This document shows positions 16,046 to 39,283 of a stretch of 64,000 bases of DNA, one piece after another. Origin of the DNA: Eledone cirrhosa (taxonomy: Eukaryota). Every line of letters begins with the position of its first letter. Positions within the stretch are counted from its first letter, which is position 1. The DNA is taken from the NCBI GenBank assembly GCA_964016885.1, contig OZ024765.1, forward strand, positions 6,138,001 to 6,202,000. Reading direction: 5' to 3'. The notes below the pieces were generated by a model. The model saw only the letters and a list, made by a program, of their open reading frames with translations. It ran no database searches and was not told the DNA's origin. The position numbers and the translations under genes were made by a program.

Positions 16046-17293
16046 ATATATATATATAAATTCTAGTACAGCATTAACGAAGCTTTAGTTTGCGGCCAAG
16101 CTAACAAATGCAAATTCGGTCTGTAGCTTTAGCACTCAAATGGGAATAGTACCCCATTGTAATAACTATACGTTTAGACAGCTTAGCAAATCAAATATAG
16201 CAATCAGCAGTCCAGCAGCATTATATATATATATATATATATATATGAAAGGTGTGAAATCCTTGGTACAGTTAGGTATATTTGAAAAAAGGAAAAGAAT
16301 GACTTCACTTGTAGTTCTAAACAATTTGATTTAATTTTATAATATTATGAGTTGGTACAACTACAAATGAAGTCATTCTTTTCCTTTTTTCAAATATATA
16401 TATATATATATATATATAAACAAGGTAAAAAGCAAACAAGCTAATGAAGATGAGAGAAAAGTGATTAGTTATATATACATATATTCATAAATCTTTATTG
16501 TTCTCTCCAGCATTTTAAATATATATATATATATATAGTTGTATGGTTGCATGAAAATGCATCCGTAGGTGGTATGCCAGTTGAGCACTCAATGCTCGTG
16601 AAGAGCAGAGTATAATAGTATAAGGATAAGGAACAAGGATTCAGTGTTGCATCATAACATATTTAATAACATATTACATATGTTTCTCTATCGATCAGCT
16701 CGAAGTAAGACTTATTCGGAGACGAATTCATATACTAAACATATCTGATGACCTTCCGATTACAGAGTCAGGTTTGATCTATAATATGTCTTACCTCGAG
16801 CTGATCGGTAGTGAAACATATGTAATATGTTATTAAATATGGTATGATGCAACACTGAATCCTTGTTCCTTATCCTTATAATGTATATATATATATATCA
16901 CCTTGACCTTGACCGACCAGTCTGTCGGGCGTCCAATCGGTGCCGCTGGTCACAGCACGTCATGCTGTTTTAGCCATAAGATAACGCCATCCCACTGGCT
17001 GGGCGGGCAGGCCGGATATATATAGATATATATATATACGATATTAACAAATGGAAACTATATTTATAAAACCATATTTATTTCATTATACATATTTCAG
17101 GGATACCAAATTAAATTATGGTATGCCTTCATCAGACAAAATACAATATATAACAAATTTACAAATAAGCTTTGACACACTCTTTTAAAATGCAACCATT
17201 ATTTTTGGAAGCCATCTGGATAGTATATCCAAAAATAATGGTTGCATTTTAAAAGGGTACGTCAAAGCTTATTTGTAAAACTGTTATATATTG

Positions 17294-17358
17294 TATTTTG
17301 TCTGATGAAGGCATACCATAATTTAATTTGGTATCCCTGAAATATGTATAATGAAATA
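17294..17358 (+). ncRNA. minimal hammerhead motif, AT-rich family (mirror copy 17079-17143 on minus)
   Basis: TATTTTGT-CTGATGA-AGG.ATACCA/TGGTAT.CCT-GAAA-TATGTA-TA^ATGAAATA. Confidence 0.72.
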
Positions 17359-17670
17359 AATATGGTTTTATAAATATAGTTTCCATTTATTAATATCGTA
17401 TATCTATTCCAAATACTTGTCGAGTGCTTTATATCAGTTATAAAAATATTTACTTGTTGTATCCCAACAACTTTAAATAGAACTTTTGCATATATATATA
17501 TATATATATATATATATATATATATATGAGCTGTCACTCACAGTCGAGTAGGACTTGGTAATCACGACCCTCTCTCCCTTGATCCAGTGTTGGTGATGAT
17601 GACAACAATGTTGATGATGGCAATGATTCTGGTAAGGAAAGGTAAACTAAGAAGAAGGTAAAATTCTTAC

Positions 17671-17789
17671 CTGAGTTTCAGGGCTAGCACTCAATTCCTG
17701 CAATAATGGCGCCGTCTCTTGACTCTTTTTCGTAGAATCATGTCTTCCTGTCACCACATTTACTAAAGTGTTCACACTAGATAAAGCAC
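17671..17789 (-). CDS. KCNH2: erg exon: GALSSVNTLVNVVTGRHDSTKKSQETAPLLQELSASPETQ
   Basis: ttacag acceptor, CAG/gtaaga donor, 119 nt, phase 1-0. Confidence 0.82.
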
Positions 17790-19559
17790 CTGTAACATAC
17801 ACAGTGTTACATTATATAGAAATATATATATCAATTATATAAATTATATATATATATATATATATATATATATATGTGTCTAATGGTAGCTAAGATGCTT
17901 CCATAGGCAGTATGCTGGTTGAGCACTCTATGTTCCAATGGAGCAAAGTATTATAGAAGGGAAAACGAAAAATCAGTGATGCATCAGAACTCAATATACT
18001 GTGTGTTACAATTGTTTCCCCGGTGAACAGCTTGAGGTGCGATCTGTGTGTGGATCTACCTGACTCTAGACTCGCAGGTTCCTCGGACACGTCTATTGAT
18101 TTCGGAGCACATCCCCTGTCCGCCAGGGAAACAATTGTAACACACAATAAATTGAGTTCTGATGCATCACTGATTTTTCGTTTTCCATTCTATATATATA
18201 TATATATATAATATATTATGTATATATATATTATATAGATGATGATATATATTATATATATATATCATATATATATATATATTATGTATATATATATTAT
18301 ATAGATGATGATATATATTATATATATATATAATATATATATATAATATATTATGTATATATATATTATATAGATGATGATATATATTATATATATATAT
18401 CATATATATATATATATTATGTATATATATATTATATAGATGATGATATATATTATATATATATATAATATATATATATAATATATTATGTATATATATA
18501 TTATATAGATGATGATATATATTATATATATATATCATATATATATATATATACACAAATGTTTATTTCCCTCACAAGGTATTGGTCAACCTGCGACTGC
18601 ATTAGATGAAGACATTAGCACAAAGTGCCATATAGTGAAACGGAACCTGCAACCATAGGGTTTCAAAGCAAATTCCCCACCCACACTGCCATGCTTGCTA
18701 CCCCTATACAAAGAACAAGTAACAAAATGCATTGATTAACCCTTTAGCTTTTAAACTGGCCATATCCGGCCTAAATTCTCTCACCTCTTTCAGTTTAAAC
18801 CGACCATAACCGACTGCTCATTCTTATGTTAAGGTATAGTTCTCAAAATAAATAATATCAAAATCTCATAGATTCAATATTATGTGAGGTAAAGACTTTA
18901 CCACAAAAATACAATAGTATATATAGAGTAATGTAAATGTTATGAGATAATTATGTAAGGCAAAGCCTTTACCATGAAGATACAATAGTATATATAGAGT
19001 AATGTAAATGTTATGGGAGATAATTATATGAGGTAAAGCCTTCACCACAAAAGTACAATAGTATATATAGAGTAATGTAAATATTATGTGAGGTTAAGTC
19101 TTTACCACAAAAATACAATAATATATATAGAGTAATGTAAATGCTAAAGGGTTAATAGGGTTATCAATTCAAAATGGTTTTAAGATGTTAGTTTTTAGTT
19201 ATTAGTATTAATTTCACGCCTCAAAAATAACACCAGACTGTGGTGGTGGGGAATATACCCCACCCCACATCGAAAAAAATCAAACAAAATTTTAAAATCC
19301 CACCAATATTAATAGAGGGAAAATAAAAATATTGTGGGGAAAAAAACCAACAAAGTATGAGAGATATATTTGTGGGATGAAGAAATTAAAAAGAAACCAA
19401 AATATTTGTGTTAATCAAGAGAAAATAAATCACGATTTACTAAATTTTTTTCTTTGTTCCATTTCATAAGGAACAGCTTCTTTATCGCTTGTTCTGATTG
19501 GTCGACAAGATCCCAAACCTCATTCAGTTGCTGAGTGGGGTGGACCTTGCGAGATCAGA

Positions 19560-19912
19560 CCAAGGAAACAATGTTTCCATTGGTCTTTCAAAGGAAACTT
19601 TTGTTTCCATTGGTCTTTCCAAGGAAACACTGTTTCCATTGGTCTTTCCAAGGAAACAGTGCTTCCATTGGTCTTTCCAATGAAATAGTGTTTCCATTGG
19701 TCTTTCCAAGGAAACAGTGCTTCCATTGGTCTTTCCAAGGAAACAGTGTTTCCATTGGTCTTTCCAAGGAAACAGTGTTTCCATTGGTCTTTCCAAGGAA
19801 ACAGTGTTTCCATTGGTCTTTCCAAGGAAACAATGTTTCCATTGGTCTTTCCAAGGAAACAATGCTTCCATTGGTCTTTCAAAGGAAATTTTTGTTTCCA
19901 TTGGTCTTTCCA
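19560..19912. repeat. 28-bp repeat inside a SINE
   Basis: tttccattggtctttccaaggaaacagtg. Confidence 0.9.
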
Positions 19913-37730: not shown

Positions 37731-37797
37731 TATATTTTATTATACATATTTCAAAGGTACAATGGTGTTTAAGTACGTTTTCATCAGACAAAATATA
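37731..37797 (-). ncRNA. minimal hammerhead motif, unpaired, in the pre-mRNA sense
   Basis: TATATTTTGT-CTGATGA-AAA.GTAC/GTAC.TTT-GAAA-TATGTA-TA^ATAAAATATA. Confidence 0.68.
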
Positions 37798-38423
37798 TGA
37801 TTTGATATTTTCCATTTGTTAACATTTTGAATAATATTAAAAACTCCATGAAAATCATTTGTTGAGTGCTTCTAATCTATTGTAATATTGCATTCATTGA
37901 GTAATCAACAAACCATACTAATCTTTGGTTATATATATATTTATGTATGTGTGTTGTGTGTCAGTACTTACTTCCTTAGTTTCTGAACCAAATGTCTGTC
38001 AGTGTGTGACTGTATGTGTATGTATGTATGTATGTGTCAGTATATATATATGTGTGTCAGTGTATATATGTATATATATATATATATCACGATAAATTAA
38101 CGGAGGCATAGGCCGTCGTTATTCCCTGTAAATAATGTGCTCAAAGGGGAAGAGATCCTGAGCCCTTTAAAATATAATATGTTGAGAAGGTAACACACCA
38201 GAGAGAGATATATAGTGCGCTATCAATAATACAGGGAAAAAAACTTGTATTATTGATAGCGCACTATATATCTCTCTCTGGTCTGTTACCTTCTCAACAT
38301 ATTATATTTTATATATATATATATATATATATGTATGTAAAAGGTAAACAGAAATAACAACACAATCGGTACAGTATATGGAAGGTATATATTAGGTTTA
38401 CGCTTGATAAAGCAGGAAGAGGG

Positions 38424-38459
38424 TCTTAACGTTTCGGACACTAATCCTTCATCAGAAGA
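38424..38459 (-). ncRNA. minimal hammerhead motif, fourth family (degenerate relative at 58883-58914, minus)
   Basis: TCTT-CTGATGA-aGGAttagtgTCC-GAAA-CG-TT^AAGA. Confidence 0.62.
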
Positions 38460-39138
38460 AAGAATGAGAAATAAAATAGATTGAGGGGACGGGCGGGTTG
38501 GAATTGGAAAAAATGTCTTTAGATAAAAATATATATGTGTGTGTCAGTGTATATGTGTATGTGTATATATATATATATATATATATATATATATATATAT
38601 ATATATATATATACATATATATATATATATATATATATATATATATATATATATATATATATATATCAGTATGTCAGTACTGACTTCATCTACTTGTGTG
38701 TATGAATGTATGTATGTGTCTGAATATATATATATATATAGTAATAATAATAAATGTGAAGACTAAAATCCGTTAAGGGTGAAAGCAGTAATTCTTTGCT
38801 TAAATTTTAATCTGCTATTTTAATAAATATATATATATATATACATGGAAAGTTATATTTAAATTGTTGGGTTAACAACGAGTAAATATTTATAACTGAT
38901 ATAAAAGCACTCAACAAGTATTTGGAGTATATTTATGATATTAAATAAATGGAAACTATATTTATAAAACCATATTTATTTCGTTATATATATTTCAGGG
39001 ATATCATATTAACAATATGTTATGCCATCTTCAGACAAAATACAATATAAACAGTCTTATAAATAAATAGATACGACATACCTGCAAGGTGATTGAAAGG
39101 TATGTCGTATCTATTTATTTATAAGACTGTTTATATTG

Positions 39139-39204
39139 TATTTTGTCTGAAGATGGCATAACATATTGTTAATATGATATCCCTGAAATATATATAACGA
39201 AATA
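39139..39204 (+). ncRNA. minimal hammerhead motif, AT-rich family (mirror copy 38977-39042 on minus)
   Basis: TATTTTGT-CTGAAGA-stem II-GAAA-TATATA-TA^ACGAAATA. Confidence 0.68.
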
Positions 39205-39283
39205 AATATGGTTTTATAAATATAGTTTCCATTTATTTAATATCGTTGTATATATATATATATATGTGTGTTTTAATATAGAA

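Follow-up and report, generated by a model that had tools for sequence, protein, structure and literature searches.

Penelope-like elements (PLEs) are described, in the available parts of the papers cited here, as inserting into (TA)n tracts and leaving inverted, 5'-truncated copies with a one-sided tail of 30 to 40 bp (PMC8557442). Heavy 5' truncation is normal even for autonomous PLEs (PMC8557442), and inverted pseudo-long terminal repeats (pLTRs) with a tail have been reported, for the junctions of which self-priming was proposed (PMC3846280). PLE hammerhead ribozymes occur as opposite-strand pairs 100 to 700 bp apart, in families "full of covariations," and show a palindromic helix III and low, dimer-dependent activity (PMC4209133). 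Among the PLEs, the Hydra clade has canonical hammerheads, inserts into (TA)n and includes a member from Octopus bimaculoides (PMC8557442); in the giant squid, 235 hammerhead hits were reported (PMC6962438; see also PMC6765202). The protein of the anole PLE Poseidon cuts and extends both target strands, reverse transcription starts at two internal sites delimiting the tail, and the reaction in vitro is independent of ribozyme cleavage (PMC11167929). Here, a 64,000-nt stretch of the Eledone cirrhosa genome (assembly GCA_964016885.1, contig OZ024765.1, positions 6,138,001 to 6,202,000 of the forward strand; hereafter the window, within which all coordinates are given) was analyzed for an AT-rich family of hammerhead-bearing fold-backs. 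Its copies, labeled E1 to E6 (Table 1), are with good confidence best explained as 3'-end remnants (a pLTR with hammerhead, plus a tail) of an endonuclease-bearing Penelope-like retrotransposon, most likely one belonging to, or lying near, the Hydra clade.

Self-BLAST of the window recovered three fold-backs (17030-17407, 37025-37363 and 38937-39244; E1, E2 and E3), bearing out those that a sequence-only reading had placed at 17038, 37034 and 38937, and each arm contains a type I hammerhead. A relaxed scan for this ribozyme type found seven family motifs (17302+, 17135-, 37259+, 37115-, 39147+, 39034- and 37787-) and one unrelated motif (38455-), compared with none in 200 local shuffles. A covariance model built from the family gave eight matches at E<1e-11, the broken ribozyme of E5 included; the next match scored 23.9 bits, and no ribozyme copies beyond these eight were found in the window. 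Two sites had been listed as single copies. The one at 37731 (E4) is itself a fold-back with a truncated long arm, and the one at 49785 (E5) is indeed a single arm, in which a 14-nt deletion between two GAAATA repeats has taken out helix III together with the cleavage site and the 3' strand of stem I.

Every fold-back of the family is asymmetric. The short arm ends at a fixed point about 45 to 50 nt after the cleavage site, where it abuts (TA)n, and this end falls at the same element position in four insertions. The long arm extends 82 to 93 nt further before reaching a (TA)n tract of its own, and the resulting tail is one-sided in 4 of 4 family fold-backs. The sequence gagtgcttt, earlier read as a flank shared by the copies, is present, but only in the long-arm tail, and the insertions are therefore asymmetric; with the tail included they measure about 410 to 460 bp, not the 300 to 360 bp first estimated. 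While the 3' ends are fixed, the 5' ends meet in the center and vary from copy to copy. None of the eight ribozyme-bearing arms extends more than about 90 nt upstream of the core, and a head-to-head, inverted, 5'-truncated copy is present in four of the six family insertions. Neither head-to-tail copies nor partial tandems with direct pLTRs occur in the window, tandems being expected only in longer copies. Over their core, the two arms of an insertion match at 139/145 (E1), 123/127 (E2) and 147/147 (E3) positions (96, 97 and 100%), against 71 to 90% for arms of different insertions. Since arms are closer to each other within an insertion than to any other copy, the inversion was made or homogenized insertion by insertion; as the sequence-only reading had proposed, the arm sequences make it most likely that it is created each time an insertion occurs. 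The head-to-head truncated copy, the one-sided tail, the (TA)n flanks and the hammerhead together support the suggested Penelope-like origin of the family, which we consider highly probable.

The long-arm tail contains, just past the position of the short-arm end, a bulged hairpin of the form RCTC...GAGYRC. The family is one of about 10 fold-back families in the window, and the same asymmetric plan holds for unrelated sequences among the 16 fold-backs that were examined. These were taken from 30 local palindrome rows, of which 14 (simple and satellite repeats, pairs derived from short or long interspersed elements [SINEs or LINEs], one duplicate and three palindromes of 42 to 48 bp) were set aside before counting. 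The hairpin is found in 11 of the 16, spanning six families; GAGYRC sits 14 to 30 nt beyond the point where the arm stops, in every case on a single side and on the strand of the long arm, in tails of 64 to 93 nt. Given a background of 0.035 GAGYRC per 72 nt and strand, the binomial chance calculated by family (6/10) is approximately 2e-5, for a motif that was chosen after inspection. At 9 of the 11 tail sites, an exact complementary 4-mer lies 10 to 18 nt upstream. Of 45 other GAGYRC sites, 5 have such a 4-mer, three of them being solo tails of the same families. The inner stems differ entirely between families yet are mostly paired, and at 38142 the outer A-U pair is replaced by G-C; the site at 16137 has no pairing partner. 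The 3' half of a hammerhead stands 42 to 84 nt upstream of the motif in 9 of 10 tails checked. Of the five fold-backs that lack the motif, four show tails of 25 to 38 nt or (TA)n on one side, and (TA)n is absent from the fifth.

A similar structure is visible in published Hydra-clade sequences, some of which carry a bulged hairpin, GCTC...GAGCAC, about 40 nt past the cleavage site. Judged by eye in the available consensus sequences of six new Hydra elements, the hairpin is clear in Hydra-2_Amil, Hydra-2_Ajap and Hydra-1_Ajap, in each with an outer G-C pair instead of A-U; in Hydra-1_Ajap it stands at the very start of the consensus, the 3' end of which stops before it. The words "hairpin" and "stem-loop" and the string "palindrom" do not occur in the main text of PMC8557442, and the literature searched, to which Repbase, Dfam and bioRxiv supplements did not belong, holds no description of the family or of its tail hairpin. 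The family is nevertheless less novel than the sequence-only reading had proposed. Its main features are published for PLEs (PMC4209133, PMC8557442): the inverted truncated copy, the one-sided tail, the (TA)n target and the covarying hammerheads are all on record, so the headline features were already known. The family is real and probably unnamed; it works like EN+ (endonuclease-bearing) PLEs and very likely belongs to them. For the hairpin, a more tentative proposal can be made, namely, that it is an undescribed cis-acting element of Hydra-type PLEs, retained from coral and sea cucumber to mollusc. The reverse transcriptase (RT)-endonuclease would bind it, cDNA would start immediately upstream and 65 to 95 nt downstream of it on opposite target strands, and insertions would be born as self-silencing, ribozyme-masking fold-backs that seed introns with long double-stranded RNA (11 in 64 kb). 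Weighing against such a role, the hairpin has little stability (about +1 to -9 kcal/mol), was picked after inspection of the data and is missing from 5 of the 16 fold-backs; by eye it is only approximate or partial in the Hydra-1_Crog and Hydra-1_Amil consensus sequences and not evident in that of Hydra-1_Obim.

Compared with the Hydra-clade PLEs, as far as these are covered in the available parts of PMC8557442, the family shares (TA)n insertion, which is not exclusive to that clade, and a canonical type I hammerhead near the 3' end. Many Hydra-clade cores have the sequence ctgaagat or ctgatgat...tgaa and in this agree with E3 and the fold-back at 39269, and many share the U.U base pair of E3. 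Unlike those elements, the family shows no open reading frame (ORF), its ribozyme sequence differs from every Hydra motif listed, its helix III is an 8-nt AT palindrome, and its stem II is longer (9 to 10 bp). The Hydra-clade protein signature is a DKT motif without CCHH, whereas the family offers only a 29-residue frame upstream of the ribozyme, a poor match by eye to the Hydra C-terminal pattern. On balance, a Hydra-like affiliation is favored. With EN+ PLEs in general (PMC3846280, PMC8557442) and with Poseidon (PMC11167929), the family has in common a head-to-head inverted 5'-truncated copy, a tail at one end and an AT-rich target, but its insertions are reduced to ribozyme and tail. Its hammerheads resemble metazoan PLE hammerheads (PMC4209133) in being of type I, with a long helix II, a palindromic helix III suited to dimers, opposite-strand pairs and covariation. 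They depart from the minimal PLE type of the same source in having A-U or U.U in place of the G10.1-C11.1 pair, no extra base after A9 and a stem I of 8 bp.

Several of these observations count against a Hydra-type PLE origin. None of the copies, all of which are truncated, is joined to a PLE RT or GIY-YIG sequence, and of 150 frames scanned (a LINE ORF plus 149 of 324 candidate ORFs, the 175 shorter ORFs and stop-broken remnants lying outside the Pfam scan) only the LINE ORF reached the Pfam cut-off; the clade is therefore not established by protein. The tail, at 82 to 93 nt (64 to 93 nt among all hairpin-bearing fold-backs), exceeds the published 30 to 40 nt. The hammerhead is without the G10.1-C11.1 pair (A-U in four of five distinct rows, U.U in one) and the extra base typical of minimal PLE hammerheads, and in five of six copies tested, shuffled sequences fold at least as well as the isolated ribozyme. 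The asymmetric centers, moreover, could also be obtained by later deletion within a palindrome. Identity with Hydra-1_Obim was rejected, as the ribozyme stems and flanks differ and none of seven family-specific motifs matched in the part of its supplement available (an eighth, generic 10-mer hit lay elsewhere). Identity with a Naiad PLE was likewise set aside: Naiad lacks a canonical hammerhead (PMC8557442), and the family has one.

The fixed ends suggest how such insertions might be made. An RT/GIY-YIG protein would bind the RNA of the element at a site past the ribozyme on its downstream side, probably the bulged hairpin, and would nick both strands of a (TA)n tract; cleavage of AT-rich DNA on both strands has an in vitro precedent in another PLE, and (TA)n flanks are observed here. 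Both DNA ends would then prime reverse transcription, one just 5' of the hairpin to give the short arm and the other 65 to 95 nt further 3' to give the long arm and tail. The two ends themselves are observed, and reading them as RT start sites follows the analogy with anole Poseidon. Both cDNAs would stop early, anywhere from about 90 nt upstream of the core to downstream of the ribozyme, and would be joined head to head. The ribozyme would be a hammerhead of the dimer type with a role in the source element, and this would explain the paired variation between copies. In L1 twin priming, an inversion likewise forms during insertion by priming from both target strands, and the parts of the RNA copied into the two cDNAs adjoin each other. 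The cDNAs of the present family would instead overlap by 130 to 180 nt, yielding a palindrome.

The number of independent cDNAs is less certain than the PLE origin. Priming of two separate cDNAs is given about an even chance; a somewhat lesser but serious one is given to a snap-back with the same PLE origin, in which a single truncated cDNA, or an antisense template, bends back to prime its own extension into the second arm. The near identity of the arms (complete in E3) and the short spacers (0 to 31 nt in 12 of 16 fold-backs) are what a snap-back would leave, and self-priming has been proposed for inverted PLE junctions (PMC3846280). Alone, however, it does not account for the fixed end of the short arm just before the hairpin, and the short arms of E4 and of the fold-back at 16619 hold 5' sequence that is absent from the long arm. 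Either arm may in fact reach further 5' (the short one in E4 and at 16619, the long one at 5972), which favors two cDNAs over a snap-back, although later deletion could mimic this unequal reach.

A related question is what was inserted. The source may have been a dedicated non-autonomous element of about 250 to 300 nt, ribozyme plus tail, mobilized in trans by a PLE protein, in line with the sequence-only reading, a candidate of real weight to which we give rather less than an even chance. The uniformly short reach of the eight ribozyme-bearing arms fits such an element, as do the lack of recognizable coding sequence in all 16 fold-backs and the common start of E3 and E5 at the same AGGTATGT position, and non-autonomous PLE derivatives have been described (PMC8557442; bioRxiv 10.64898/2026.07.22.740005). 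But the 5' ends differ among copies, heavy 5' truncation is usual in autonomous PLEs, and four insertions keep an upstream frame ([GR]YV...L-stop) with indels of 3 or 6 nt, which weakly suggests, over a short stretch, the end of an ORF; an autonomous source is slightly favored. Non-LTR retrozymes, tandem repeats of 150 to 450 bp expressed as circular RNA, are an unlikely source. Like the family, they are short, AT-rich and non-coding, with a type I hammerhead, a unit of monomer size and a link to PLE pLTRs (PMC7229834; bioRxiv 10.64898/2026.07.22.740005), but they are arranged head to tail, whereas the window has only head-to-head fold-backs or single arms and the tail never recurs upstream of the ribozyme. 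Long inverted repeats with TA flanks would also suit an insertion at TA of a DNA transposon bounded by terminal inverted repeats, either a miniature inverted-repeat transposable element or a fold-back element. The asymmetric ends, the one-sided tail, centers and arm lengths that differ in every insertion, the existence of single-arm copies and the maintenance of ribozyme pairs make this very improbable. Even less probable is that the palindromes are artefacts of sequencing, amplification or assembly. Amplification is known to produce palindromes, and the E3 arms are fully identical, but those of E1 and E2 differ by substitutions and a 14-nt deletion, short ends coincide in four insertions, and the fold-backs are confined to repeat families with tails.

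The paired variation of the ribozyme was assessed in an alignment of seven rows, five of them distinct, from four independent insertions. The three stem I variants quoted by the sequence-only reading are exact. Its statement that stem II differs but stays paired applies in large part: 94.7% of all ribozyme cells are paired, but four stem II columns contain unpaired cells. The core is not unchanged, as had been claimed, because E3 reads CTGAAGA and has a U.U pair at the base of stem II. Four pairs are changed on both sides (one in stem I and three in stem II). The covariation score, 0.284 against 0.198+/-0.031, was reached by 0 of 500 shuffles, a control that ignores relatedness, while the count of two-sided changes was matched by 31 of 500; with the structure slid along the alignment, only 39 to 57% of cells paired. 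These statistics fall short of R-scape-grade proof. An Rfam scan gave no hammerhead among the best 150 of 198 matches, most of them microRNA models hitting dinucleotide repeats, and the family pattern had no exact match in a collection of bacterial and archaeal genomes.

In the fold-backs the ribozymes appear to be masked. The probability of stem I pairing falls, in fold predictions, from 0.03 to 0.85 in the ribozyme alone to <1e-39 in whole E1 to E3. Because transcription from either side meets an antisense arm first, which masks the ribozyme, the genomic copies E1 to E3 are, on this modeling, probably inert, and if the inserted copies are inert, the paired variation would reflect selection in the source elements. 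E4 is the sole intact and largely unmasked copy with the same sense as the host transcript. Through its 8-nt palindrome, helix III can join two molecules by base pairing, as would be expected of cleavage in a dimer.

The family is ordinary transposon debris of a described type, and the new lead is the tail hairpin between two fixed ends. Fold-backs of this kind are a natural record of the still unsettled way in which PLEs make inverted repeats and tails, and two fixed ends flanking a conserved hairpin define a concrete RNA element that can be mutated in an in vitro PLE assay (PMC11167929). If the hairpin is diagnostic of the clade, short non-coding remnants could be assigned to the Hydra clade without protein sequence.

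Table 1. Coordinates of the hammerhead family copies and of the host gene in the window
Feature	Position	Strand	Details
E1 short arm	17034..17209	-	Ends at fixed point against (TA)n; hammerhead 17143-17079
E1 central spacer	17210..17227		Unpaired, 18 nt
E1 long arm	17228..17489	+	Tail of ~82 nt, then (TA)n
E1 type I hammerhead	17294..17358	+	Stem I 8 bp; core 17302; palindromic helix III 17342-17349; predicted cleavage after 17350
E1 tail hairpin	17406..17427	+	Bulged; ATTC...GAGTGC
E2 long arm	36941..37178	-	Tail of ~84 nt; hammerhead 37123-37063; 14-nt deletion downstream of ribozyme
E2 tail hairpin	37004..37025	-	Bulged; inner stem CAG/CTG vs CAA/TTG in E1 and E3
E2 short arm	37195..37355	+	Hammerhead 37251-37311
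E4 short arm	37684..37800	-	Intact hammerhead 37795-37733; host pre-mRNA sense; only partly masked
E4 long arm	37805..37929	+	Truncated downstream of ribozyme; tail hairpin 37843-37869
E3 long arm	38845..39083	-	Tail of ~93 nt; hammerhead 39042-38977; tail hairpin 38928-38907
E3 short arm	39098..39244	+	147/147 identical to E3 long arm; hammerhead 39139-39204; CTGAAGA core; U.U at stem II base
E5 single long arm	49744..49944	+	Hammerhead inactivated (helix III and cleavage site deleted); degenerate tail hairpin 49863-49884
E6 tail-only copy	58643..58764 (about)	+	E4 subfamily; (TA)n tracts on both sides; lacks ribozyme; GAGTGC at 58694
ERG/KCNH-type potassium channel gene	12943..56904	-	Most of gene in window; 15 exon matches

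The window is intron-rich animal DNA, and E1 to E5 are all intronic in the ERG/KCNH-type gene, whose best named relatives are molluscan (87 to 88% in the pore exon and 38 to 48% in a variable exon). Intronic fold-backs at this density would form duplexes of 50 to 180 bp in the pre-mRNA of a neuronal channel, and A-to-I editing could plausibly act on such duplexes. Within a single intron, 2.6 kb (36930-39500) hold six fold-backs and a solo hammerhead, a cluster that suggests repeated insertion into earlier (TA)n tracts. The spacer of E2 (37154-37222) carries a repeat of a 12-nt piece of the arm, possibly from a template switch at the junction. The start shared by E3 (39076-39105) and E5 (49744-49752) resembles a splice donor, possibly by chance; introns can occur in PLE pLTRs.

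Other fold-backs were found alongside the family. Two related ones (16611-16889 and 17949-18198) have a left-hand tail and a bulged hairpin, and in the former the hammerhead at 16745 (+) is complete, its stem II region measuring 60 nt and its helix III being palindromic. A second hammerhead family, at 39269-39398 and 5972-6098, has a looped helix III and a ctgatgat...tgaa core close to published Hydra-clade motifs; its copy at 39269 is a perfect palindrome without spacer, carrying a full ribozyme on both strands. Further families that share the tail hairpin (37374-37529, 38168-38311 and 41375-41532, with solos near 58370-58510 and 54830-54945) are mostly cut inside the hammerhead. Fold-backs or solos at 6300-6445, 55132-55216, 38740-38826, 16277-16398 and 48426-48489 have tails of 25 to 38 nt without GAGYRC; these tails match the classical 30- to 40-bp PLE tail and perhaps represent another clade. 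The hammerhead at 38424-38459 (-) is a classical minimal PLE hammerhead with an extra A after the core and an ACGT helix III, unrelated to the family. Finally, a fold-back at 7885-8449 has GAA-rich arms and a 203-nt center, with neither (TA)n flanks nor a tail motif.

Repeats of other kinds are also present. A 753-aa open LINE-type ORF with RVT_1 and a PHD finger, which we take to be of RTE type, occupies 60253-62514 (+); its 3' part also recurs as short fragments, an inverted pair at 30661-31842 among them, and no link between this RT and the hammerhead family was seen. One repeat unit occurs at 23815-24717, 45160-46521, 56949-57769 and 29949-30390, as tandem arrays (72- and 60-bp periods) at three of these sites and as a large hairpin at the fourth. 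A dispersed SINE-like repeat seems to be the origin of other minisatellites, of 48 to 49 bp, at 15144-15971, 22429-23461 and 52812-53770.

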